Assembly (NCBI GenBank): GCA_964471755.1 | Contig: CAYYJM010000097.1 | Coordinates: 1 to 14,565 of the forward strand | Direction: 5' to 3' | Source of the DNA: an uncultured Alcaligenaceae bacterium | Lineage (GTDB): Bacteria > Planctomycetota > Planctomycetia > Gemmatales > Gemmataceae | DNA: 14,565 bases | Shown: in pieces, positions 19 through 13,501 of the stretch | Layout: each line of letters starts with the position of its first letter | Numbering within the stretch: the first letter of the stretch is position 1 | Program-made: the position numbers and the translations under genes | The notes under the pieces: model-generated | Databases searched by the model: none | Told to the model about the DNA's origin: nothing | The model's input: only the letters and a program-made list of their open reading frames with translations

Positions 19-3000
19 TCAGGGCTCGCTGAGGATCGACGCGAAATCGATGTCCGTCCGAGAGTGCGGCGTGAATTGATCGGTGGCCGTCATCTGGCGG
101 TAGGCGTCCTTGCTGGCACTGCTGAGGTACTCCAACTGCGTCAGGAGGAGGTGAACTCGTTCGTGGTAGAAGATCACGTCCTCACCGCCTGGATGGCTGA
201 GGATCTCCTGACCTTCGAGGGCCTCCTCGGCCAGTTGCTGGAGTGCCTCACCCGCAGAGCTGTTCGGCCGCTCCAGAACGACCAGTTCCTGGACCGCGAC
301 GACACCACTGGACTGGTTCGCCGGCCGGCGCGGAGTGGCCTGCAGGTCTGGTTCGGCCTTCTGAAGGCAGACTTCCACCTCGCCCAGGCGGAGGCTGTTC
401 GAGGTCGTCTGCTGCAAGAACAGGTCGGCGACGCTGGTCTCGGCCAGGTGACCGTTCGCGAAGCGACTGGCCACCTCTAGCAAGCTGTCCTGCACTCCGC
501 GCAGGGGCGTGTTGGAGAGACAGACATTCACCAGGGCCTGGTATTTCTCGCGGATCATGGCCTCGATCTGGTGGTCCAGTTCGAGCAACTGGTCGGGGCC
601 GATCTCAGCGACGATCTTCTCCAGGGCCTCGCTCAGACTCTTGCAGCCTCCGGGCAGGAGGATGCGACCCGCTTCCGGACGCAGGCCGGTCCCCTGGGCG
701 CTGAAGTTGGCCGCGACCCGGCCGGGATGGCTGCTACTGATCACCGGCGTGCCCAGCGCTTCGAGGCTGCGCAGCAGCTCTCCGAGGCGGACTCGACAGA
801 AGTTGACCTCACGGAGTTCGTCGGAAAGATGGCCGCGCAGGGCCAGGAACGTCTGGGAGATCCGGTGCAAGATCAGGCTCTGCAAGCGCACCTTGGGATA
901 GGCACGCAGGATGGTGATCAGCTGATCGGGAGTGTAGTTGAGCTGCTTGCCACGACCGGCCAGGATCTCCTGGAGGGTGTTGTAGCCGTTCTTCGCCTGG
1001 AGGTCAAAATCCTTGCCGAGCGGTTCGTGGTGTTGCAGGATCTGTTCCAGCTGTGCCAGCAGTTGCCGGATGGCTTCCTCGGCCCCGGCCAGGCGGAACT
1101 CCGGCTCCTCCAGCAGGCGGACGGCGATCTCGGTCAGTTTCTGGCTCCACTCGTTCATCAACGACTCGGCCACCGTACGCAGGTAGGTGTCGAAGAGACT
1201 CGACTGGACGTGGAGAGTCTCCTCGCTCGGTTTGCCGAGCAGGCGTTCGAGTTCCTCGACCACCGGCTGCAGTTCGTCGGGCGGGATGTCTGCGGCCGTC
1301 ACCTGGCCCCAGCGTTTGGCCGGGACCGAAGACGCGGCGCGCAGCTGGCGAACCAGGGGCTCGACCACGGCCAGGAGTGCCGTTTCCGGGTCCTTGCCGA
1401 CCTGCTCACGCAACCGATCCTGAAGGCGTTCGAGGAAGGACTCGACCCCGAGATCGCGACGCTGCCATTGTTCCTTGACGACGCTCGTGACGGCTCCGAG
1501 GATCGGCTTGCTATCCTTGCTCATCCAGCGCACGACCAGTTGCATGCACAGGTGGCGAGCGGCCTCGCGGAGCAGTTCACGGCGCGGCCAGGAAAGCCGG
1601 TGCAGGCCGAAGGTCTGAGCGTAGAGTCCGCGTTCGTTCCAGGGCGGACCCGGCAAGCCGGCCCGGCCCAGATCGGCGACCCGACCCAGCGGCGTGCCCA
1701 GATCGCGGAACAGCATCTGGCCGGTCATGTCCTGCAGCTCGCGCGTGCGGACTTCCTCACTCTCGTCCGGCAACGGTAAGAGGATGGTCCGGACGAAGGG
1801 CGGTTCGCCATCGGAGAGGGGAGTTTCGCGTTCGTGGTAGCGGCCGGTGAAGACCGTTCCCGGTGTGGCGAAGTAGCGCAATTCCGTGAGGGCGGCAAAG
1901 GTGTTGCTCCGACGCAGGCGCTCGTCCCAGTTCTCGGGTCCGGGCCGGCCGCGCCGGGAATCGGGAACGAGGAGAACGGCGACGATGTCGGGTTGCTCAA
2001 ACCCGCGCTGTCGGATCAAGGAGCGAAGGACGTAGGCCAGATCGAGAAACATGCCCGAGCCGGTTCCGCCGGCCAGGTTGGCGATCAGGTAGACGCGGGG
2101 CCGATTGGTGCGCAGCCCACAGCCGGTTTCGCTCGCGGCTCGTTGCAGGGCGGCCGGGTCCAGGATGGCGTCCAGCTCGGCGGCCAGGCGGTGAAGGATG
2201 AGCCGGTAATTGTCGCAGAAGGCGAGCCGGCCCAGGGCACGGACGCCGGTGGTCACCTGCGAGCGCGGGATGCGATAGAGCATCTGCTGCGGAATCCACG
2301 TCTCCAGGCTCGGCCGACCTTCGCGCGGTTTGAGGTAGTGGCTGGGCCGATTGAGCGGAGCCAGGAGGACCTCGTTGCTGGACAGGGCCGGCCCGGACTT
2401 GCCCTGGGTCGCCGTCCGGGTGACATCCGGATCGGTGTCGAGCAGAAGAAGCTTCAAGCTGGGGAGGGCGTCGAGGCCACCGAACGACTCGACGAGCCGC
2501 TCACGCAGGCGGCGCAGGATGCCCAGTCCGCTCTGACCCAGACCGATGACCAGGCCGGGGAACAGACAGCCGTCGCCCTTGATCTCTGGCACGGGCTTGC
2601 GCGGTTGATTCCCCGCGCTGCCCGTCAGGGGGGCAGATCGGTGAGCGGCGGTCGCCTGCGCCTCGACGCTCCGCAGTGGGTGGGTGGTCCCCGGGCCGGA
2701 GTCGGGCGGAGAGGACGGACGGTTCGCGCCTGCGATTCGTGTCGAGTCGCTCGGCACGATGGCTGCGGGCTCCGGTCGTGATTCCGCCAGTGTGCCCGTG
2801 GTGGGGACTTCCGAACGAAGCGAGGCCGACGGCTCTCCTTCCTTCAGAAGCTGGACCATTTCCATGCAGGTAGGGAAACGATCCGCTGGCGTCTTGGCGA
2901 GTGCCCGCAGGATGATCGGTTGCTCCCACGAAGGCAGCGTCGCGACGTTCGGCTGACCCTGGAGGTGTTGCAGGATCAACTGGCGGATGTTCGAGCCGGA

Positions 3001-3648
3001 GAAAGGACGCTGGCCGGTGAGCAGTTCCTGGTAGCAGATCGCCAGGCTGTACTGATCGCTGTGTCGGCTGACGATGCCGTCGAACGTTTCGGGAGCGGCG
3101 TAGACGGGCGTGATGCCGCCGGTGACCTTGGTTTCGAGCCCTTCGAGATCCTTGACCAGGCCGAAGTCCGCCACCTTGACGTGGTTGTGGACGAGGAAGA
3201 GATTCTGTGGCTTGATGTCCAGGTGCTGCAACTGGTACAGGCCGTTCATCAGATCGAGGGCCTCGGCCGTCTCCGCCAGATAGCCGAGCAGTTCGTCGCG
3301 GGGGATGCCGGGCAGTCCCTGAGCGCGGCACTCCTTGAAGCGGTCCCAGAGGTTGCGATCGGCCAACTCCATGACGATGAGGAGCTGGCCGTTGATGATG
3401 TCGTAGCGTTCCAGCGACAGGATGTAGGGATGGCGAACGGTCTTGACGCGCGCGAGGGCCTTGAGTTCCTGCTCGGCGCGTTCACCGTCGTCGGTACTCT
3501 GGAGGTCGCCGTAGACGAACTTGATGGCCTTGTGCAGACCGCCGGGGGCCTCGCACTTCCAGACCTCGCCAAAGCCGCCGCCGCCCAGTCGCTCGATGAG
3601 GCGATAGCCAGGAAGCGGTTCGGCGTTGAATTCCAGGCGGGCCGTCAT
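19..3648 (-). CDS. Multidomain protein: N-terminal Hanks-type Ser/Thr protein kinase, Pro/Ser-rich linker, tubulin/FtsZ-superfamily GTPase-like domain, ~500-aa alpha-helical C-terminal region
   Basis: 1209-aa ORF, ATG start at 3648-3646 preceded by GGAGAG SD 8 nt upstream. Kinase motifs: GGGGFGEV (G-loop), AIKF (VAIK Lys), HLDIKPQN (catalytic loop), DFG, AAPE. Tubulin/FtsZ motifs: VIGLGQSGLGIL (T1-like Gly loop, aa ~366-378) and LIANLAGGTGSGMFLDLAYVLR (tubulin signature GGGTGSG plus H4-like helix, aa ~521-542). No internal stops; codon usage consistent with neighbours. Confidence 0.85.
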   Translation of the reverse strand: MTARLEFNAEPLPGYRLIERLGGGGFGEVWKCEAPGGLHKAIKFVYGDLQSTDDGERAEQELKALARVKTVRHPYILSLERYDIINGQLLIVMELADRNLWDRFKECRAQGLPGIPRDELLGYLAETAEALDLMNGLYQLQHLDIKPQNLFLVHNHVKVADFGLVKDLEGLETKVTGGITPVYAAPETFDGIVSRHSDQYSLAICYQELLTGQRPFSGSNIRQLILQHLQGQPNVATLPSWEQPIILRALAKTPADRFPTCMEMVQLLKEGEPSASLRSEVPTTGTLAESRPEPAAIVPSDSTRIAGANRPSSPPDSGPGTTHPLRSVEAQATAAHRSAPLTGSAGNQPRKPVPEIKGDGCLFPGLVIGLGQSGLGILRRLRERLVESFGGLDALPSLKLLLLDTDPDVTRTATQGKSGPALSSNEVLLAPLNRPSHYLKPREGRPSLETWIPQQMLYRIPRSQVTTGVRALGRLAFCDNYRLILHRLAAELDAILDPAALQRAASETGCGLRTNRPRVYLIANLAGGTGSGMFLDLAYVLRSLIRQRGFEQPDIVAVLLVPDSRRGRPGPENWDERLRRSNTFAALTELRYFATPGTVFTGRYHERETPLSDGEPPFVRTILLPLPDESEEVRTRELQDMTGQMLFRDLGTPLGRVADLGRAGLPGPPWNERGLYAQTFGLHRLSWPRRELLREAARHLCMQLVVRWMSKDSKPILGAVTSVVKEQWQRRDLGVESFLERLQDRLREQVGKDPETALLAVVEPLVRQLRAASSVPAKRWGQVTAADIPPDELQPVVEELERLLGKPSEETLHVQSSLFDTYLRTVAESLMNEWSQKLTEIAVRLLEEPEFRLAGAEEAIRQLLAQLEQILQHHEPLGKDFDLQAKNGYNTLQEILAGRGKQLNYTPDQLITILRAYPKVRLQSLILHRISQTFLALRGHLSDELREVNFCRVRLGELLRSLEALGTPVISSSHPGRVAANFSAQGTGLRPEAGRILLPGGCKSLSEALEKIVAEIGPDQLLELDHQIEAMIREKYQALVNVCLSNTPLRGVQDSLLEVASRFANGHLAETSVADLFLQQTTSNSLRLGEVEVCLQKAEPDLQATPRRPANQSSGVVAVQELVVLERPNSSAGEALQQLAEEALEGQEILSHPGGEDVIFYHERVHLLLTQLEYLSSASKDAYRQMTATDQFTPHSRTDIDFASILSEP
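1549..2565 (-). other. Tubulin/FtsZ-like GTPase domain (aa ~362-700 of the 19..3648 protein)
   Basis: T1-like GLGQSG loop and exact tubulin signature motif AGGTGSGM followed by a helix resembling tubulin H4; domain boundaries approximate. Confidence 0.65.
2839..3606 (-). other. Ser/Thr protein kinase catalytic domain (aa ~15-270 of the 19..3648 protein)
   Basis: All Hanks subdomain motifs present in order (GxGxxG, K of AIK, HxDxKPxN, DFG, APE). Confidence 0.85.
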
Positions 3649-3796: not shown

Positions 3797-4954
3797 ATGG
3801 CAGCAATCCGGAGGGACCGTGTCGTGACTCTGTACGCGCTGTCGATCAAGCAACCGTGGGCCGCCCTGCTCGTGCAGGGCCGCAAGACGATCGAGGTGCG
3901 CCGCTGGACCACGCGCCGGCGGGGGCTGGTCCTGATCCACGCCGCCCGGGTGCCGGACGCGCGGCCGGAAGGCTGGCGGCACGTCGGCCCGGACCTGGAG
4001 TCGGTCGCGCGCCTCAACGGCGGCATCCTCGGCGTGGCCGTCCTTCGCGACGTACTGACCTACCGCACGTCGGCCGGGTTCGTGGCGGACCAGGCGAAGC
4101 ACTTCAACGAACCGGGCTGGTTCGAGGAATCGGGCCTGTACGGACTGGTGTTCGCGCAGGCGGCACGGGTGCCGTTCTATCCGTTCACGGCACAGGTGCG
4201 GTTCTGCCGGGTCGAGGGATTTCCGATGGCGAGCCTGCCGACTGAGTTCCGCGCCCTGGCCGCCGTCGCGGATCGCAGGACGGGGAGCCGGCTGCTGGTG
4301 AGCGTTCGCTCGGCGGCCGAGGCGCGCGCGGCGATCGCCGGCGGCTGTGATCTGCTCGACGCCAAGGAGCCGACTGCCGGGCCGCTGGGTGCCGTCACGC
4401 CGGCGGTCCTGGCGGACATCCTGGCCGAGGCCGGTGGCGTGCCCGTCAGCGCCGCCCTGGGGGAATTGCCATCGTCCGGCCCGCTGCTGGGCGTGCCGAC
4501 CGGGGTGACGTACGTCAAGATCGGCCTGGCCGGCTGGGGCCAGCGCGACTGGCGACGCCGCCTGGCCGAGGTGCGGTCGCCGCGTCTGGTGGTCGCCGCG
4601 TATGCCGATCATGTGCGAGCCGGTTCGCCGACGCCGGAAGCGCTGCTGGAGGCGGCCATCGACCTGCAGGCGGCCGCGTTTCTGATCGACACCTGGACGA
4701 AGGATGGTGGCGACCTGCTCGGAGCCGTGGGCCGGGGTCGGCTGGCGGCCCTCGTCGCACGGGCGCGATCCGGCGCGATGCCGATCGCGCTGGCCGGATC
4801 GCTGACCGCCCCGACGATCGCGGCCCTGGGCTTCCTGGCACCGGACTGGTTCGCCGTGCGCGGCGCGGCGTGCGAGGGTGGACGGGGCGGCGTGGTTTCC
4901 GCCGAGCGGGTGCGCGATCTGACCCGGTTGCTGCACGGCGACACGGAGACGTAG
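3797..4954 (+). CDS. Fusion protein: N-terminal ASCH (PUA-like) domain + C-terminal MfnB-like (DUF556/COG1891, (5-formylfuran-3-yl)methyl phosphate synthase family) TIM-barrel aldolase domain
   Basis: ASCH-like N-terminus: LYALSIKQPWAALLVQGRKTIEVRRW. C-terminal half aligns motif-by-motif to archaeal MfnB: LLVSVRSAAEARAAIAGGCDLLDAKEPTAGPLGA (Schiff-base Lys region DxK), YVKIGLAG, VVAAYADHVRAG, ALAGSL, VRGAACEGGRG. Alternative start GTG at 3824 is in frame and has a GGAGG SD 8 nt upstream; the ATG at 3797 lacks an SD. Confidence 0.8.
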   Translation: MAAIRRDRVVTLYALSIKQPWAALLVQGRKTIEVRRWTTRRRGLVLIHAARVPDARPEGWRHVGPDLESVARLNGGILGVAVLRDVLTYRTSAGFVADQAKHFNEPGWFEESGLYGLVFAQAARVPFYPFTAQVRFCRVEGFPMASLPTEFRALAAVADRRTGSRLLVSVRSAAEARAAIAGGCDLLDAKEPTAGPLGAVTPAVLADILAEAGGVPVSAALGELPSSGPLLGVPTGVTYVKIGLAGWGQRDWRRRLAEVRSPRLVVAAYADHVRAGSPTPEALLEAAIDLQAAAFLIDTWTKDGGDLLGAVGRGRLAALVARARSGAMPIALAGSLTAPTIAALGFLAPDWFAVRGAACEGGRGGVVSAERVRDLTRLLHGDTET

Positions 4955-6300: not shown

Positions 6301-7404
6301 TCACCCGATCTCGACCACCGCCTTGCCCAGGACCTCCCATCGTGGCGTGACACCCAGGCCGGGAGACGTACTCGCGGCCAGCCGACCATTCTGTCTCCGG
6401 GGCGCGCCCTCGGCGTTGGAGACGGTAACGTAACTGTTGAAGTCCGTCGAGGTGAACAGGAACTCCGGCGGCGTGCTGTGAGCCAGGTGCGCGATCGCTG
6501 CCGTGACGATGTCACCGCCCCAGCTGTCCTCCAGCGTCATGGCCAGGCCGAGCGAGACGCACAGATCGCGAGCCTGTCGTGCCTTCGTCAGCCCGCCGAA
6601 CTTGCTGATCTTGATGTTGACCACGTCCATCGCCCGGTCGGCATGGCCGCGCAGCAGCACGTCCACCGAATCGATGTTCTCGTCGAGGACGAATGGATGA
6701 TCCGTGTGACGCCGTACGGTCAGGCACTCCTCGTACGTCCGGCACGGCTGCTCGATGTACACGTCCACGTCGCGCACCGCTCGGACGACTCGCAGGGCCT
6801 CGTGCATCAGCCAGCCGGTGTTGGCGTCGGCGACGAGCCGATCACCGGGCTGTAACTTCGCGGCCACCTGGTGAATGCGCTGGACATCCACGTCCGGGTC
6901 GCCGCCGACCTTGAGCTGAAAGCGGCGGTAGCCCTCGGCCCGGTAGCCAGCGACACGCTCGGCCATCGCCTCGGGAGCCTCCTGCGAGATGGCTCGATAG
7001 AGACCGAAATCCTCGCCGTAGCGGCCGCCGAGCAGGACACAGACCGGCTGACCGGTCGCCTGGCCGAGCAGATCCCAGCAGGCCATGTCGAGGCCGGACT
7101 TGACGTAGGCATGCCCCTGGAGGGCGGCGTCCATCCGGCGATTGAGTTTGCCGAGCTGGGTGGGATCTTCGCCGAGCAGGTGCGGCCCGAGTTCGCGCAG
7201 ACCGGCCCGCACCCCGGCGGCGTAGGCCGGCAGGTAGAACGGGCCAAGCGGACAGACCTCGCCATGACCGACGAGGCCGGTGTCCGTCTCGACGGCGATG
7301 ACGGTGCTGTCGAAGACGGTGATGGCCTTGCCGCCGGACCACTTGTAGCTCCCCTCGGCCAGGGGCAACTCGACACGGTAGGCACGGATACGGCTGATCT
7401 TCAT
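6301..7404 (-). CDS. Enolase-superfamily enzyme, mandelate racemase/muconate lactonizing enzyme (MR/MLE) family (racemase/epimerase/dehydratase; exact substrate unknown)
   Basis: 368 aa by the ORF track (GTG at 7407, then ATG at 7404). Metal ligands in canonical MR/MLE spacing: DANTGW, IEQPC, LDENI. Conserved [13 protein letters not shown] motif (catalytic Lys at end of 6th strand). Second-strand motif FQLKVGG. Start overlaps hflK stop (GTGATG). Confidence 0.85.
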
Positions 7405-8348
7405 CACGGCTTCTCCATCCTCGGCAGCAGATCGTCGATCAGGCCGAGTTGGCCCGTCTCCTGCAACTGGCGTAGCACACGCGTGCGCTCCTCACGCCAG
7501 AGTTGCTCCAGGTAATTCGGATTCTTCACGATCGCCTCGACCAGCACGGCGACGCGGGCCGCAAACCGCTCGGCGTTCCGGCGAGCCAGTTCACGCTGCG
7601 TGTAAGCGTAGCTCGCGGCCGATTTCTCGATCCGCTGGGCCTCCGCGTGGGCGGCCTCGACCTGAGAGAACTGCTCCTGCCGCGCTCGCGTCTCCTGCGT
7701 GTGGATGTTCGCCTGGGCGCGCGAGACGCTGTCGAACGCCTGCTTGACCTGCTCCGGCGGAGCCAGGTGGACGACGCGCACATCGATCACCGCAATCCCC
7801 AGTCGATACGGATCGAGCCGACTGGCCAGATCGCCGACGAGGAAGGTCGGCAGCGTGACCTTGCCATCAAGCAGAACGTCATCGACGTTCCGCCCCGCGA
7901 CCCATCCGGCCAGGCTCGACTCGGTAACCCGACCCAGAAGCGGCTCGACCCGCTGGCGTGCGAGGACGTAGTCCTCCAGGCCGTCCTCTGGCACCTTGAA
8001 CGAGACGACGACGCGGACATCGATCAGGTTGTGATCACCGGTGAGCAGCTGTCCCGGTGGATTCGCCGACTCGCCGCGACGCCGGGCGGCCTCCCGGGCC
8101 TCCTCGGTGTTCAGGTCTGGATCGAAGCCGACAGCGAGGGTCTGGATGCGATCGACCGGCACGCGATCGACCTGATCGATGCCCCACGGCCAGCCGATGC
8201 GGAGGCCCGGTCCCGGCTTGAACGGCAGGAACGCACCGAATCGGCGAACGACGGCCCGCTCGCCCGGCCGCACCTCGACGATGCCGGTCAGCAGCCAGCC
8301 GACCAGGACGACGCCGAGCAGGAGGAGGAAGATTCGGCGCACGCTCAC
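7404..8348 (-). CDS. hflK: HflK-like SPFH/band-7 membrane protein
   Basis: 314 aa. N-terminal TM helix ([15 protein letters not shown]) then [16 protein letters not shown]...[13 protein letters not shown] and [39 protein letters not shown], matching E. coli HflK core (ERGVVTRFGK...; LLDVNFQAARPPEEVKAAFDDAIAARENEQQYIREAE). GTG start at 8348 overlaps hflC stop by 4 nt. Confidence 0.85.
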
Positions 8349-9322
8349 GACCCGCCTTTCTTGATCGGCTCCGGCGCGGGCGGCGTCGGCGGCTCGGTCA
8401 GCGTCTTGAAGCGTTTGGTCGAGAGCAGCAGGACCGACTTGCCGGTCGAGAGGAGGCTCTTGAGGTCTTCGAGTTCCTTGAGGAAGGCGTAGAACTCGGG
8501 TCGGCGGAGCTGCGTCTCGTTGAGGATACGGTCGGCGGTGGCATCGGCCTTGCCGCGAGCGGCGATGGCCTGGCCCTCGGCGTCGGCCTTGAGCTTGCCG
8601 ACTTCCAGTTCGGTCTCGCTGCGGATGTTCGCGGCCAGGCGTTCGCCGCGGCTCTCGTACTCGGCCGCCTTGCGATCGCGTTCGCTGATGATCCGCTCGA
8701 AGATGGCCGGCCGAACCGCGGGCGGATGGTTCGACCGCCGGAGCCGGACATCGACGACCTCGATGCCGTACTCGGTCCTGGCTCGCTCGCGCAGTCCGGG
8801 GCCGCCGGCCGATGGCTGATCGAGCAGCGTCTGGCGAAGGCGATCGCGTTCGCGATCGACCTTGCCGGGTTCGGTGCTGATGAGGTCGGCGAGTTCCATC
8901 CGGCCGATGGCGGCACCGAGTGCGTTGTTGATGTCACGATCGAGCAGGGCCTGGGCTCCGGTGACGGTGCCGACCTTGCGGATAAAGCGATCGACGTCGT
9001 CGCGGGTGGCGATCCGCCAGCAGACGTAGGCGTCGATGGTGAGGGTCTGATCGATGGTGCCGCGCTCCCGATCACGGGTGAGCAGCTCGGCTCCGGGCAG
9101 GTCGAGGTACTGCAGTCGGCGGTCGATGCGCTGGACGCTCTCGATGGGCCAGGGCCATTTCAGGTGGAGGCCGGCGTCGCTGGACTCGCTCCCGTCGTAG
9201 GTCGCGACGTGAGCGCCGAACTGTGTGCGATAGACGAACTCGCCGGCGTCCACGGTGAACAGCGACGAGCGCACCAGGGCGATGAGGAGAATGAGGCCGA
9301 AGATTCCGAGTAGCGTTCGCAT
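8345..9322 (-). CDS. hflC: HflC-like SPFH/band-7 membrane protein
   Basis: 325 aa. TM helix (LLGIFGLILLIALV) then FTVDAGEFVYRTQFGA...GLHLKWPWPIESV, GIEVVDVRLRRSNHPPAV, and C-terminal RPEFYAFLKELE, matching E. coli HflC (FVVKEGERGITLRFGK; GIEVVDVRIKQINLP; DPDFYAFIRSL). GAGGG SD 8 nt upstream of ATG. Confidence 0.85.
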   Translation of the reverse strand: MRTLLGIFGLILLIALVRSSLFTVDAGEFVYRTQFGAHVATYDGSESSDAGLHLKWPWPIESVQRIDRRLQYLDLPGAELLTRDRERGTIDQTLTIDAYVCWRIATRDDVDRFIRKVGTVTGAQALLDRDINNALGAAIGRMELADLISTEPGKVDRERDRLRQTLLDQPSAGGPGLRERARTEYGIEVVDVRLRRSNHPPAVRPAIFERIISERDRKAAEYESRGERLAANIRSETELEVGKLKADAEGQAIAARGKADATADRILNETQLRRPEFYAFLKELEDLKSLLSTGKSVLLLSTKRFKTLTEPPTPPAPEPIKKGGS

Positions 9323-9334
9323 GGACAGATTCCC

Positions 9335-10039
9335 TCACGCGATCCACAAATCGCTGCACGCCTGCTCGCAGCTCTGCTCCAGATTCAACGGCACAACCTG
9401 ATCCTCGCTCAACCACAGCGGCAGCGTCGGCAGCGGTTGACCGACGTTCAGGGCGTGCGACCAGGCTTCCAGCAGTGTCCGCTTGCCGCGCCGGACCCAT
9501 CGACACGACGCGGCGTAAATATCCGGGGGCGGATCGCCGTGCGACGGGTCAGCGTGCCCGAGGAAGGCGAGCAACTCGACGTACAGGTTGAACTGCCGCA
9601 CGGTCACCAGATCGACGATGCTCACGGCGACGCCCTTCTGGAGCAGAGCGGCACACTTGGCGACGAAGACGTTGCGATGCTCGGGTCGGTCCAGGTTCGC
9701 GGGGCTGACGATCTCGATGGCGGCGACCAGAAGCCGGCTGCGGGTAGCGTCGAACACACGCACGCCATACTCGTCGTAGATGGGCAGCGTCGTCTCGACG
9801 CACAGACTGGGGGGCGTCGGTGCCCAGTCTGCCGCGCTGGTGTCGGTCTCATCGACCGGCTCGACCTGCGAGATGGCGTTCTCCCGGTGGAACCCGGAAT
9901 GCACCCGTGGCTCCGCGACGTGGCCAGACGGAAGTCGTTTCCGCAACTGCTGGACGATGACCGCAGGCCAGCCTCCAAAGAAGCCCTCCCACGAAGCGAT
10001 CGTGTCCACCGGCGGTCGGAAGTGATCGCGTAGCGGCAT
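9335..10039 (-). CDS. DUF4058 / Uma2-like (PD-(D/E)XK-fold) family protein
   Basis: 234 aa. Core block LLVAAIEIVSPANLDRPEHRNVFVAKCAALLQKGVAVSIVDLVTV resembles the DUF4058/Uma2 consensus (D...IEVLSP.NK...gR..Y..K......g..L.EIDLL). Strong GGAGGAG SD 9 nt upstream of ATG, located inside the 3' end of the ATPase gene; ATG lies 3 nt after the ATPase stop. Confidence 0.6.
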   Translation of the reverse strand: MPLRDHFRPPVDTIASWEGFFGGWPAVIVQQLRKRLPSGHVAEPRVHSGFHRENAISQVEPVDETDTSAADWAPTPPSLCVETTLPIYDEYGVRVFDATRSRLLVAAIEIVSPANLDRPEHRNVFVAKCAALLQKGVAVSIVDLVTVRQFNLYVELLAFLGHADPSHGDPPPDIYAASCRWVRRGKRTLLEAWSHALNVGQPLPTLPLWLSEDQVVPLNLEQSCEQACSDLWIA

Positions 10040-10042
10040 GGC

Positions 10043-13000
10043 TCACGGCTCCTCCGGCCGACGCGGCAACGACGGCATCACCGGCCGACGATCGAACGAG
10101 TCACCGCCCGGCAGCAGGCCCTTGCGCTGCTCGCCCAGGATCATCCAGAGTTGCAGCCAGCCCGGCAGGGCCACGTCGTCGATCAGAAACTTCTCGCGCA
10201 AGGCCAGGGCCGACGCGATCGCCTCGGACGCCAGTCGGAACTCCGTCAGGTACGCCTGCTGCTCCAGTCGATGCCGACGAGCCTCCTGCAACCACGACCA
10301 CGCCGCCTCCGGCTTCTCTCCGCCATCGACTCGAGCCCCGGCGGCCAGGAACAGGCCAACCTCGCTCGTCCACGATAGTGTCGATCGACTGTCATCGCGA
10401 CCGAAAAAGACCGTCTGCCGAGCCCGGGCCAGTCGCTCCTTCTCGTAGCTCTGCACCACGGCCTCGCTCACCCGCCGCAGCGAGCGGCCAAACTGGTCGG
10501 CCAGGTTGCGCGTCCGGGCGGCCTCCGCCTCGTTCTTCCGACGGTCGGCCCGCTCCATCGCCACGGCCACTCGATGGTACGCGCCAACCACCTCCGGCGG
10601 CGGATGCAGATCGTGCAGCGCCAGCCCCGTCACCTCCAGGCCAAGACCCGGCGAGCCAAACTCCGCCAGCCGGCCCTGAAGCCGGGTCAGGGCTTCGCCC
10701 TGGAACTCGCGACGATCCTGTGTCAGCAGACTCTCGAACGACCGACCAGCAACCAGCTCGCGGAAGACCGCCTCGGCACTGCCACGAACGACCGCCTCCG
10801 GATCGCCCACGTCGAACAGGTAGACACGCGGCTCCGTGATCCGGTAACGGATGGCCGCCTGGACCTCGATCAGGTTGCCGTCGCCCGTGATCATGACGGC
10901 CTCGTCCGGCAGCAGACGAATGCCCTCGCCGGAATGACCACTACTCCACGAACGGCCGTCGGCCAGGCCCCCCTCGGGGCGATCGACCCGGTAGCCGATC
11001 GCCACCGAGCGGATGCGATCGGGCTGCACCCGACGAACCGTCTCGATCGGCCAGGGCCAGCGCCAGTGCAGGCCCGGCGACAGGTCGGCGACCGGCTTGC
11101 CGAAACGCTGCACGATGCCGACCTCGTCGGACTGGATCGCGGTCAGACCCCAGAGCGGATAGATGACCAGCAGAAGCAGACCCAGCGTCGCCAGGATCGG
11201 CCGCCAGTGGTGCGTCACCCAGTGCAGGCCCTCTTCGAGGTTGAGGTACTTCTCCGTCCAGTCATTGACACCGGTCAGCCAGTGGCGGAAGCCGGCGTAC
11301 GTCCGGCTCTCCGGCTTCTCGAACCAGAGCAGCCGCATCGCGTTGAGCAGCACCGCGAGCGAGCCGAGTTGGTGGTAGAGGACGGCGGCCAGCGGCGACT
11401 GCTCGTACCAGGCCGCCGGAGCGAACAGCGGCCAGAGCCAGGAGGTCAGGACGACGCCGACGACGTTGACGACGATCGCGAACCAGAAGATGTTCTGGCC
11501 GATGATGGCGACCGTCTGCCGGGACAGCCGCACGAGCAGCGGCAGGTGACGGAGCGGATCACCCATGCAGACGACATCGCCGGTCTCGGCGGCGATGTCA
11601 GTGCCGGTGCCGCCGATGGCCAGGCCGACCGTGGCACGGGCCAGGGCCGGGGCGTCGTTGATGCCATCGCCGACCATCGCGACGCGCTTGCCCTCGGCCT
11701 CCCACGCCGCGACGAACTCGGCCTTCTGCGTGGGGAGAAGTTCGGCATGAACCTCGGCCAGGCCGAGCTGATCGGCGACGTTCCGGGCGACGGCAGCGCG
11801 GTCGCCGGTTAGCATGGCGACGCGGCCGATGCCCAGGCCGCGCAGTTCGGAGAGAACGTCGCTCGCCTCGTCGCGGACCCGGTCGCGGACGCCGAGGACG
11901 GCGATGACGTGCAGATCGCCAGGAATGCCAGGAGCCGGCTCACTCGTGGAGGCACCGCCGGGCTGGGCCTGGATCTGGGCCGACGTGGTCGGCTCGGCGA
12001 TGCTGCCCCGTGCCAGGAGCAGGGCCGTCTGACCGGCGGCGTCGAGTTCCCCCAGGGTCTTCAGGACCGCCTCGGGAAGAGCGACACCGAGTTCCTCCAG
12101 GAGCCGACGATTGCCGACGAGCAGGGTCGCCTCGCCAGCGACGGCCAGGATGCCGAGACCGGGATACGCCTGGAAGCGTTCGACCGTCGGCAGATCGAGG
12201 CCGCGCTTGCGCGCCTCGCCGACGAGCAGTTCGGCGAGAAGATGCTCGCTGCGCTGCTCGGCCGTCGCCGCCCAGGCGAGGAGTTCGGTTTCGGAATGCC
12301 CGCCCACCGGGACGATGCGGGCGAGTTCGAGCCGGCCCGCCGTCAGGGTGCCGGTCTTGTCGAAGGCGAAGGCATCGACCGTGGCGAGGCGTTCGAGGGC
12401 GGCCCCGCTCTTGATCAGGATGCCGGTGCCGGCGAGCCGTCCCAGCGCGGCGATGACGGCCGCTGGCGTCGCCAGGATCAGGGCACACGGGCAGGCGACG
12501 ACCAGGACCGACAGGGCCGGATAGGCGGCGATGCGGATCGCCTGCATCAGGGTGAAGCGCAGGCCCTCGCCGGGTCGGGTCCAGCCGCTCCAGACGGCGT
12601 AGACGCCGACGAGAAACGTCACCAGGGCCAGGCCGAGAACGATCGGCAGGAACCAGCGTGCGAGCCGGTCGGCGGTGCGTTCCAGTGGGGCCTTGTTCTG
12701 CAAGGCCCGGGCGGTCCACTCGACGACCTGGCCGGCGACGGTATGCTCGGCGACCCGGCGGGCCTCGATCGTCAGGGCACCGGTCTGGTTGAGGCAACCG
12801 GCCAGGATCTCGTCGCCGGGACCGCGATCGACCGGCAGACTCTCGCCGGTCAGGGCGCTGGTATCGACGGACGATCGACCGTCACGGACGACGCCATCGC
12901 AGGGAATCCGACCGCCCGGCTTGACGACGACCACGTCGCCGACCTGAAGCTCGGCAATGAGGATGCGCTCCTCCTGCCCGTCGCGCAGACGCCAGCAGCG

Positions 13001-13501
13001 GCGCGGGAAGACCTCGGCGAGCTGGCGGATCGCATGCTGGGTTCGCTCGAAGGTGACACTCTCCAGACACTCACCGAGCATGCCGATGAAGACGATCTCG
13101 GCGGCGACGAGCGGTTCTTGCAGCAGGATGGCGGCGATGCAGGCGAGGGCCAGGGCGAGATCGGCTCCGAGTCGGCCCTGCAAGAGCGAGTCGATGGAGC
13201 CATAGAGGGCGCGAGCGCCGCCGAGGATGGCGGCGAGCAGAGCGAGACGGTAGCCGGCGTAGGTGTTGGGCCAGCTCGGCAGACCCAGGCCGAAGCCGTT
13301 GAACCTGGCGGCGACGTAGACCCACAGGTCGGCGACGATGAGCAGACCGATGAGGGCCGTCAGCAGGTAGAGCGTAAGACGGCTCTCCTGCTCCAACCGC
13401 GAATCAGCGTAGGAAATCTCGCGGTGCATGACAGATCGACCAGGAGGGAGAATCGGATCGGGCTCGACTGTCAGGCTACGGGCGATGGCGAAGTCAGTCA
13501 A
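10043..13501 (-). CDS. P1B-type (heavy-metal, CPC-motif) P-type ATPase fused in frame to an extra TM helix and a C-terminal HflK-like SPFH/band-7 domain
   Basis: 1152-aa uninterrupted ORF. ATPase motifs: TGES (A-domain), ACPCAL (TM6 CPC), DKTGTLT (phosphorylation site), SEHLLA (HP-like), MLTGD, MVGDGINDAPAL, final TM pair ending LLNAMRLL (aa ~670-725). Then linker, TM helix HWRPILATLGLLLLVIYPLW (aa ~765-784) and SPFH domain: EVGIVQRFGKPVADLSPGLHWRWPWPIETV ... GLEVTGLALHDLHPPPEVVGAYHRVAVAMERADRRKNEAEAAR (HflK-like). No N-terminal CxxC metal-binding domain. Start is TTG per the ORF track; an alternative ATG sits at aa 25 (nt 13429). Confidence 0.85.
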   Translation of the reverse strand: MTDFAIARSLTVEPDPILPPGRSVMHREISYADSRLEQESRLTLYLLTALIGLLIVADLWVYVAARFNGFGLGLPSWPNTYAGYRLALLAAILGGARALYGSIDSLLQGRLGADLALALACIAAILLQEPLVAAEIVFIGMLGECLESVTFERTQHAIRQLAEVFPRRCWRLRDGQEERILIAELQVGDVVVVKPGGRIPCDGVVRDGRSSVDTSALTGESLPVDRGPGDEILAGCLNQTGALTIEARRVAEHTVAGQVVEWTARALQNKAPLERTADRLARWFLPIVLGLALVTFLVGVYAVWSGWTRPGEGLRFTLMQAIRIAAYPALSVLVVACPCALILATPAAVIAALGRLAGTGILIKSGAALERLATVDAFAFDKTGTLTAGRLELARIVPVGGHSETELLAWAATAEQRSEHLLAELLVGEARKRGLDLPTVERFQAYPGLGILAVAGEATLLVGNRRLLEELGVALPEAVLKTLGELDAAGQTALLLARGSIAEPTTSAQIQAQPGGASTSEPAPGIPGDLHVIAVLGVRDRVRDEASDVLSELRGLGIGRVAMLTGDRAAVARNVADQLGLAEVHAELLPTQKAEFVAAWEAEGKRVAMVGDGINDAPALARATVGLAIGGTGTDIAAETGDVVCMGDPLRHLPLLVRLSRQTVAIIGQNIFWFAIVVNVVGVVLTSWLWPLFAPAAWYEQSPLAAVLYHQLGSLAVLLNAMRLLWFEKPESRTYAGFRHWLTGVNDWTEKYLNLEEGLHWVTHHWRPILATLGLLLLVIYPLWGLTAIQSDEVGIVQRFGKPVADLSPGLHWRWPWPIETVRRVQPDRIRSVAIGYRVDRPEGGLADGRSWSSGHSGEGIRLLPDEAVMITGDGNLIEVQAAIRYRITEPRVYLFDVGDPEAVVRGSAEAVFRELVAGRSFESLLTQDRREFQGEALTRLQGRLAEFGSPGLGLEVTGLALHDLHPPPEVVGAYHRVAVAMERADRRKNEAEAARTRNLADQFGRSLRRVSEAVVQSYEKERLARARQTVFFGRDDSRSTLSWTSEVGLFLAAGARVDGGEKPEAAWSWLQEARRHRLEQQAYLTEFRLASEAIASALALREKFLIDDVALPGWLQLWMILGEQRKGLLPGGDSFDRRPVMPSLPRRPEEP
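10046..11224 (-). other. C-terminal TM helix + SPFH/band-7 (HflK-like) domain (aa ~760-1152) of the fusion protein
   Basis: Shares the WPWPIE(S/T)V block with the adjacent HflC-like protein and the PPE(E/Q)V..A(F/Y) block with HflK. Confidence 0.75.
11312..13501 (-). other. P1B-ATPase core (aa 1-~730) of the fusion protein
   Basis: Complete set of P-type ATPase motifs; see the CDS entry. Confidence 0.8.

Follow-up and report, generated by a model that had tools for sequence, protein, structure and literature searches.

A conserved fusion of a P1B-type metal ATPase with an HflK-like SPFH domain, encoded beside HflC-like and HflK-like genes

For the SPFH cages formed by HflK/C, prohibitin, stomatin, flotillin and erlin it is unsettled how they affect the proteins they enclose, and their clients were mostly found indirectly. 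The E. coli HflK/HflC complex was shown to consist of 24 alternating HflK and HflC subunits that surround a membrane patch (PMC12048511). A scaffold acting on metal pumps was described in M. tuberculosis, where PacL, a protein with a single transmembrane (TM) helix encoded in the same operon as the Ctp pump, stabilizes P1B-type pumps and clusters them in membrane domains (PMC13460109; hemerythrin is mentioned in this report as well). Here, we describe a gene on the minus strand of a stretch of 14,565 nucleotides, referred to as the window (positions 1 to 14,565 of contig CAYYJM010000097.1, GenBank assembly GCA_964471755.1), which is deposited under an uncultured Alcaligenaceae bacterium and carries a GTDB lineage within the Gemmataceae. 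The gene encodes a P1B-type metal ATPase and an HflK-like SPFH tail in a single polypeptide. Evolution has here joined a client, in this case a primary metal pump, to its scaffold by a peptide bond and has retained this arrangement, along with matching partners of the HflC and HflK type, in at least three phyla.

The fusion gene is composed of the following parts, for which residue numbers are those of the 1128-amino acid protein:

10043..13429, minus strand: fusion gene (P1B ATPase, linker, ninth TM helix and HflK-like SPFH tail), 1128 amino acids plus stop codon
11324..13429, minus strand: P1B-type ATPase core, residues 1-702, with 8 TM helices and the A, P and N domains (TIGR01525)
11207..11323, minus strand: cytoplasmic linker, residues 703-741, with conserved residues and a predicted helix at residues 709-728
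11141..11206, minus strand: ninth TM helix, approximately residues 742-763 (Kyte-Doolittle peak of 2.07 at residues 745-763; AlphaFold2 (AF2) helix at residues 731-759)
10520..11137, minus strand: SPFH/Band_7 domain, residues 765-970 (PF01145, E 2e-22; HflK matches)
10046..10519, minus strand: coiled-coil helices and C-terminal region of the tail, residues 971-1128 (AF2, Foldseek)

The first-pass annotation of the window had placed the start of the open reading frame (ORF) at the TTG at 13501, from which an uninterrupted minus-strand ORF extends to 10043 and would encode 1152 amino acids. This start was corrected to the ATG at 13429, i.e., M25 of the longer ORF, which yields the product of 1128 residues, because the homologues begin with MHRE (all of those aligned), the database protein P0001, which is 100% identical, is 1128 amino acids long, and the TTG at 13501 makes up the first three bases of a promoter-like element. 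As part of the -35 hexamer of this conserved element, and with the homologues starting at the ATG, the TTG was rejected as start codon. The frame itself is as it had been annotated: it is open from the pump into the SPFH tail, and three domains reside in one polypeptide, recognized by Pfam as E1-E2_ATPase (E 1e-51), HAD-type Hydrolase (E 1e-23) and Band_7/SPFH (E 2e-22). The AF2 model of the full-length fusion protein has a mean predicted local distance difference test (pLDDT) score of 76.

The assignment of the pump to the P1B-type ATPases is borne out by the heavy-metal P1B model TIGR01525 (NCBIfam), which matches residues 114-724 with 535 bits and thereby exceeds its cut-off of 346. Eight TM helices are found in the pump by AF2 and hydropathy, in agreement with the P1B membrane layout of MA, MB and M1-M6. 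The motifs TGES, DKTGT, TGD and GDGxND and the CPC motif of TM4 (ACPCALILATP) are invariant in 55 family members, and this invariance indicates that the pump is a competent enzyme rather than a mere anchor.

Between the last helix of the pump and the SPFH domain, a linker of about 40 residues and an extra TM helix are present as originally annotated. Within the linker W724, E726, H736, W737 and H740 are invariant or near-invariant. In P1B pumps both the N-terminus and the C-terminus are cytoplasmic. Because the eight helices of the pump therefore end in the cytoplasm and the ninth helix crosses the membrane once more, the SPFH tail is predicted to be located on the periplasmic side, as HflK and HflC are in E. 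coli. For the coiled-coil and C-terminal part of the tail AF2 predicts a coiled-coil helix of 68 residues (residues 949-1016) followed by helices at residues 1020-1035 and 1040-1076. A single TM helix and an SPFH domain are thus followed by an extended coiled coil and a C-terminal region, which is the layout of HflK.

Several comparisons show that the tail resembles HflK and not HflC, stomatin or flotillin, as had been proposed from blocks of similarity in the first pass. The NCBIfam hflK model TIGR01933 matches residues 788-1030 (119.5 bits, below the cut-off of 159.4), E. coli HflK is the only match in a sequence search of the PDB with the tail, and in a Foldseek search with the AF2 model of the tail (pLDDT 74) the HflK chains of FtsH-HflK/C structures rank first (E 3e-15), with an alignment of about 295 columns that spans the SPFH domain and the coiled coil. 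Lower matches comprise stomatin, prohibitin, HflC, QmcA, erlin and flotillin, all of which are cage formers. The tail is 26% identical to the stand-alone HflK-like protein encoded nearby, and it has essentially the WPWPIE motif alone in common with the neighbouring HflC-like protein.

Two features on the predicted periplasmic face were observed in addition. The SPFH domain carries an inserted loop of about 25 residues (residues 815-839; window 10913-10987, minus strand) with invariant W828, S830, H832 and G836, which is predicted to be disordered (pLDDT <50), and the periplasmic loop between TM5 and TM6 of the pump contains an invariant WYEQSP motif (approximately residues 675-680; window 11390-11407, minus strand). 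Both would be periplasmic, and they might touch within one molecule or serve to hand over metal.

The fusion is widely conserved. A survey of the 120 best clusters at 90% identity (55-100% identity to the window protein, 95-98% coverage) revealed the same three Pfam domains in all of them, with lengths of mostly 1068-1150 amino acids and one of 960 amino acids; wherever an organism is named among these cluster sources, it is given as Gemmataceae. In a second survey, using one genome per GTDB species, 211 genomes with a relative of the tail were found, and the loci of the best 80 of these 211 were analyzed. All 80 are metagenome-assembled genomes (MAGs). Their titles read Gemmataceae, Gemmatales or Planctomycetota, except for a small number of bins that carry the names Alcaligenaceae or Kuenenia and that we regard as mislabelled. 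No cultured host was identified among the named clusters and the best 80 GTDB matches. A third survey of 1.84 billion representatives at 50% identity extended the family further: among the 150 best matches inspected, 89 contain both parts fused, 62 of which have a length of at least 950 amino acids, and nine distant representatives at 35-42% identity have all kept the three domains. Orthologs with the same fusion, which the first-pass annotation had suggested to search for, thus exist in many species and in at least three phyla, with members in Planctomycetota (mainly Gemmataceae), Elusimicrobiota and Abditibacteriales.

These data also bear on the possibility that the fusion is an artefact or pseudogene, i.e., a mis-assembly, a frameshift joining two genes, or a decaying gene. 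The contig of about 21 kb to which the window belongs was seen once (P0001), and in 8 of the 80 species loci the frame is broken by stops or frameshifts; six of these eight are 'MFD' MAGs, assumed to be long-read assemblies. Against this, the same fusion occurs in hundreds of independent assemblies from differing sources, the eight broken loci are interrupted within domains and never at the junction, and a single open frame leads from pump to tail in the remaining 72 loci. A resequenced break between the two halves, or orthologs that are universally split, had been named as observations that would speak against the fusion; a clean split at the junction of pump and SPFH domain was found in none of the 80 species loci. 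The ratio of non-synonymous to synonymous substitution rates (dN/dS), determined against a relative with 80% identity, amounts to 0.24 in the pump and is practically equal (0.25) in the linker with the ninth TM helix; the SPFH domain has a value of 0.27 and the C-terminal region one of 0.39. The junction is thus constrained like the remainder of the gene, the linker is both conserved and under purifying selection, and the catalytic motifs are invariant. Because of this conservation, the open frames in 72 of 80 loci and the dN/dS values, an artefact is considered excluded for practical purposes, its probability being minute, and sequence comparison indicates that the fusion is real, conserved, under purifying selection and ancient.

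Candidates for split relatives did not hold up, as the closest ATPases that look unfused, P0199 and P0205, are truncated where their contigs end. The single genuine unfused relative examined is P0232 (locus L089), which is not directly followed by hflK; a pair of genes encoding Band_7 and NfeD proteins is located in this locus further upstream than the cbiMNQO genes described below.

The fusion gene is followed on the same strand by genes encoding a DUF4058 protein, an HflC-like protein, an HflK-like protein and an unrelated enolase-family protein of the MR/MLE type. The first three are:

9335..10039, minus strand: DUF4058 gene (PF13267, E 3e-07), 3 nucleotides past the stop codon of the fusion gene and 12 nucleotides before the start of the HflC-like gene
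8345..9322, minus strand: HflC-like SPFH protein, 325 amino acids (TIGR01932, 140.9 bits, above the cut-off of 134.4)
7404..8348, minus strand: stand-alone HflK-like SPFH protein, 314 amino acids (TIGR01933, 122 bits, below the cut-off of 159.4)

Both adjacent HflC/HflK products that the first-pass annotation had mentioned as possible partners are thus present, at 8345..9322 and 7404..8348, and the fusion gene appears to be transcribed together with their genes. The start of the HflK-like gene overlaps the stop of the HflC-like gene by 4 nucleotides, and both proteins have an N-terminal TM anchor preceded by a cytoplasmic tail of 3-5 residues (3 residues in the HflC-like protein). This arrangement is common in the family: the HflC-like gene begins -3 to 362 nucleotides past the stop of the fusion gene in 67 of the 80 species loci, an HflK-like gene follows about 1 kb beyond the HflC-like gene in about 58 of the 80, and the order of hflC-like and then hflK-like after the fusion is found in roughly 90% of the assessable loci. 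In the loci L001 and L003 and at P0004 the fusion is directly followed by two Band_7 genes, and the flanks are otherwise unrelated. The trio of fusion, hflC and hflK is also present in L086, a locus with only 38% identity, and in L085 from Elusimicrobiota, here with the hflC-hflK pair upstream of the fusion. The partners in L085 and L086 exceed the NCBIfam equivalog cut-offs for HflC and HflK (194-226 bits; 216-226 bits for the HflK-like proteins).

Since all three SPFH modules can lie on the same side of the membrane, their co-assembly is topologically possible. The best explanation, to which we assign a probability of roughly 0.6, is that the pump is tethered to a periplasm-facing ring of the HflK/C-type that it forms with the HflC-like and HflK-like partners. 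The three SPFH modules would face the periplasm and co-assemble as an HflK/C-type alternating ring or cage. As a consequence, the pump would always remain anchored either inside the membrane patch enclosed by the ring or along the edge of this patch. The pump-less HflK paralogue would probably fill HflK positions, so that the bulky pump would sit at only some of them. At the assembly the pump would export metal out of the cytoplasm to the periplasmic side, and the ring would govern the local lipid and protein environment of the pump, its stability, or the site of metal release. Candidate roles of the tether include the provision of a defined membrane environment, a coupling to FtsH-dependent turnover, or the release of metal into a semi-enclosed periplasmic chamber. 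According to the first-pass annotation, the fusion implies that the pump resides obligatorily in such an assembly, and the conserved hflC-hflK partners and the matching topology make this more likely.

A number of points weigh against this explanation. Ring formation and stoichiometry are themselves inferred. The tail and the HflK-like neighbour, with 119.5 and 122 bits, both score under the HflK equivalog cut-off of 159.4. In seven loci in which 1.9 kb or more of sequence is available past the fusion (L010, L016, L035, L059 and L071-L073), adjacent hflC and hflK genes are missing, as they are at P0002 (L002), which is 80% identical, and at P0006, so the tail may work without adjacent HflC and HflK or with partners encoded elsewhere. 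Twelve pump headpieces are, by a rough estimate of our own, too large for one closed ring of about 20 nm, and because they would not fit, the geometry must differ from that of a fully occupied cage of the E. coli type. The ring could be open, like the nautilus form that has been described (PMC12048511), or the second HflK paralogue could be a pump-less spacer.

The loci that lack the partners lead to an alternative, in which the tail acts autonomously, either as a homo-oligomer or as a monomeric periplasmic domain with a regulatory or metal-accepting function, and the hflC-hflK genes are an unrelated housekeeping pair that was kept nearby by descent. This would account for the approximately 10% of assessable loci without adjacent hflC/hflK, including P0002 and P0006; moreover, stomatin and QmcA, which are among the fold matches of the tail, make homo-oligomeric cages, and the inserted SPFH loop with its invariant W, S, H and G could touch the WYEQSP loop of the pump within one molecule. 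However, relatives with an identity as low as 38% and members of a second phylum still have the trio, amid otherwise unrelated genes. The genes of the trio are closely spaced (-3 nucleotides, an overlap, in several loci), and the tail is specifically similar to HflK, which is known solely as the alternating partner of HflC. We therefore regard an autonomous tail as unlikely.

A further alternative shares much with a tethered pump in an HflK/C-type ring but differs in the purpose, which would be the control of degradation and not spatial organization: the HflK-like tail would mainly dock the pump to FtsH via a canonical FtsH-HflK/C complex, and regulated proteolysis would set the abundance of the pump. 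HflK/C is a known partner of FtsH that modulates it and was shown to enhance as well as to reduce the degradation of membrane proteins by FtsH (PMC12048511). The partners in the distant lineages, which pass the HflC/HflK equivalog cut-offs, may be the ordinary cellular HflK/C, and some fused proteins (P0157, P0294) are named 'FtsH protease activity modulator HflK' by NCBI. On the other hand, none of the neighbourhoods in which genes were called contains an FtsH gene, and the contact residue Arg191 of HflK cannot be placed reliably in the alignment. A covalent tether would furthermore be a costly way to mark one substrate, and selection on the pump core is as strong as on the tail, which fits a working machine better than constant degradation. 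Taken together, a role as turnover adaptor seems improbable to a similar degree as an autonomous tail.

Which metal is transported by the tethered pump was addressed by motif comparison and by two gene neighbourhoods. The nearest solved structures are approximately equidistant (CopA 336 bits, sCoaT 307 bits, ZntA 265 bits), and no N-terminal HMA domain is detected by Pfam in the fusion protein. TM4 carries CPC in 58 of the 62 full-length fused representatives, and of the 50 fused representatives with a detected TM6 motif, 45 have H[QE]xxS. In the window pump TM6 reads Y-H-Q-L-G-S and aligns position by position with H-E-G-S-T of sCoaT (HEGxT of P1B-4). The TM6 histidine of the fusion pump aligns with a methionine of CopA and, by an alignment of our own, with the aspartate of the ZntA motif. 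In TM5, V/A-N is found where CopA has YN, and the TM5 sequence QNIFWFAIVVNVVGVVLTSWLW lacks the lysine of ZntA.

These residues separate the pump from two of the described subgroups. P1B-1 (CopA, Cu+) was rejected, as YN in TM5, MxxSS in TM6 and an HMA domain with CxxC are missing and the TIGR01511 score of 373 bits is below the cut-off of 397, and P1B-2 (ZntA/CadA, Zn2+/Cd2+/Pb2+) was rejected for the absence of the conserved lysine in TM5 and of DxG in TM6. The broader model TIGR01512 scores 418 bits on the pump, above its cut-off of 313.5. In comparison with P1B-4 (CoaT/CzcP/PfeT, Co2+/Zn2+/Fe2+), TM6 aligns and the HMA domain is likewise absent, but TM4 is CPC and not SPC. Judged by these residues, the ion site has a hybrid signature, with CPC in TM4 and H-Q/E-x-x-S in TM6. 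In two distant relatives the pump gene is immediately preceded by genes of energy-coupling factor (ECF) transporters of the cobalt/nickel-type, i.e., cbiQ-cbiO in the Elusimicrobiota locus L085 (4243-5909) and cbiM-N-Q-O in L089 (2261-4820), the locus of the unfused relative. Because the TM6 motif aligns with P1B-4 and ECF genes are located upstream in these two relatives, a divalent metal (Co/Ni/Zn/Fe-type) is favoured over Cu+, albeit with low confidence. Several observations count against this assignment. A CPC motif in TM4 is characteristic of Cu+/Zn2+ pumps, the family carries the JGI name 'Cu+-exporting ATPase', and neither a metal-sensing riboswitch nor a regulator gene was found nearby. 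The signature residues themselves do not support the JGI label.

Two further features of the pump are noted. Its N-terminus begins with Met-His (MHRE... or MHY[VIT]P[ED]S...) in 38 of the 62 full-length fused representatives (P0121-P0270; window 13424-13429, minus strand), M1, H2 and R3 being invariant across 55 Gemmataceae sequences, and resembles the metal-binding N-terminus MHIPDG of CbiM/NikM; this conserved Met-His N-terminus may be a substitute for the absent HMA domain. The nucleotide-binding domain contains a low-complexity insert of about 33 residues (AEPTTSAQIQAQPGGASTSEPAPGIPG..., approximately residues 476-508; window 11906-12004, minus strand), which is found only in the window protein and a few relatives (P0002, P0005, P0063) and which is disordered in the AF2 model.

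If the metal is indeed divalent and the pump is tethered as proposed, the HflK/C-type cage might be a dedicated metal-handling compartment, in which tethered pumps discharge divalent metal into the chamber under the SPFH dome and the pump-less HflK paralogue sets the number of pumps per cage. We consider this extension quite unlikely and speculative. If true, the chamber would serve the protected metallation of membrane or periplasmic proteins or would block the re-entry of metal. No earlier SPFH cage would then have had a client and a chemistry that are both defined and hard-wired in the genes.

The region upstream of the fusion gene contains the element to which the rejected TTG belongs:

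13473..13501, minus strand: promoter-like element TTGACT-N17-TAGCCT, ending 43 nucleotides upstream of the ATG

In the loci measured, the element ends 38-111 nucleotides upstream of the ATG and has the extended form TTGACN-N17-TAGCCT(GA). A pattern scan for TTGACN-N17-TAGCCT, which covered the window and about 1.0 Mb of related loci, returned 30 exact occurrences (the window and 29 related loci), all of them just upstream of the fusion gene and on the same strand and none elsewhere in these sequences. This suggests a gene-specific promoter, which is possibly read by a dedicated sigma factor. A generic sigma-70 scan did not call the element at 13473..13501, and no wider conserved operator-like dyad was found around it. 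Rfam matches are absent from the upstream region of the fusion gene and from the whole window. Near the fusion loci no conserved regulator or chaperone gene was found, and the flanks vary between loci.

Further observations concern the other genes of the window. DUF4058 is found at the position after the fusion in the window only and is absent from this position in every other locus examined, including that of a relative with 76% identity; in L009 a DUF4058 homologue is located upstream on the opposite strand. It was rejected as a component of the system, as it occupies that position in the window alone; it appears to be a multi-copy gene that was inserted in this lineage only and is probably outside the system. 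At its longest, the ORF of the MR/MLE gene (6301..7407, minus strand) shares 4 nucleotides (7404-7407) with the HflK-like gene at the stop of the latter, but this adjacency is not conserved in other loci and co-transcription with the HflK-like gene is probably incidental. Two further ORFs were recorded. One encodes 1209 amino acids (window 19-3648, minus strand) and combines a Ser/Thr protein kinase (residues 15-257) with Tubulin_2 (PF13809, residues 366-705), an unusual kinase-tubulin fusion. The other (window 3797-4954, plus strand) encodes an ASCH domain together with a 4-HFC-P synthase (MfnB-like, PF04476), an enzyme of methanofuran biosynthesis in what is apparently a planctomycete host.

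For SPFH biology the fusion is of interest as the identity of the client is known, and its position and the number of copies per ring could be measured directly by cryo-electron microscopy. For metal transport, the family represents an uncharacterized P1B lineage with CPC in TM4, H-Q/E-x-x-S in TM6, a Met-His N-terminus and no HMA domain. In public databases some of the fused proteins are listed as 'cation-translocating P-type ATPase family protein' and others as 'FtsH protease activity modulator HflK', and either name conceals one half of the protein. The first-pass annotation was not aware of a described fusion of a P-type ATPase with an SPFH protein, in line with our literature searches: full-text searches returned no description of a P-type ATPase-SPFH/HflK/Band_7 fusion, and a recent P-type ATPase review and a survey of prokaryotic SPFH proteins are silent on it. 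The novelty is that of a conserved new combination of two well-known families, not of a categorically new system.

In comparison with the E. coli HflK/HflC-FtsH complex (PDB 7VHP, 7WI3, 9CZ2), the tail of the fusion likewise has one TM helix that leads into a predicted periplasmic SPFH domain with an extended coiled coil, and HflC-like and HflK-like genes are co-encoded. However, a metal pump of about 700 residues is found where E. coli HflK has a cytoplasmic N-terminus of about 79 residues, the module consists of three SPFH genes in the order fused-K, C, K instead of K, C, an FtsH gene is not located nearby, and the tail carries a family-specific inserted loop. On the side of the pump, P1B-4 enzymes such as sCoaT (PDB 7QBZ) are similar in having eight TM helices, an aligned TM6 and no HMA domain, but differ by SPC in TM4. 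We know of no described P1B subgroup that has a ninth TM helix and a periplasmic domain, and the literature searches agree with this. P1B-5 ATPases possess a C-terminal hemerythrin-like domain that is soluble and cytoplasmic. They thus resemble the fusion in having an extra C-terminal domain, but in contrast to it lack an additional TM helix, a periplasmic domain and any relation to a scaffold family. In the complex of human stomatin with aquaporin 1 (PDB 9ZD2), which was retrieved as a fold match of the tail, an SPFH oligomer engages a membrane transport protein as would be the case in the fusion; that interaction is, however, non-covalent, eukaryotic, on the cytoplasmic face and with a channel, whereas the fusion is covalent and involves a primary pump. 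The closest functional analogue is the PacL-Ctp effluxosome. PacL is a DUF1490 protein, faces the cytoplasm and binds non-covalently to the N-terminal metal-binding domain of the pump, whereas the scaffold of the fusion is an SPFH domain that is covalently attached and predicted to be periplasmic; by Pfam no DUF1490 is present in the proteins of the operon, which contain only Band_7, DUF4058 and ATPase domains. By analogy, it is likely that the activity of the pump depends on membrane organization as in the mycobacterial effluxosomes, brought about here by an unrelated scaffold.

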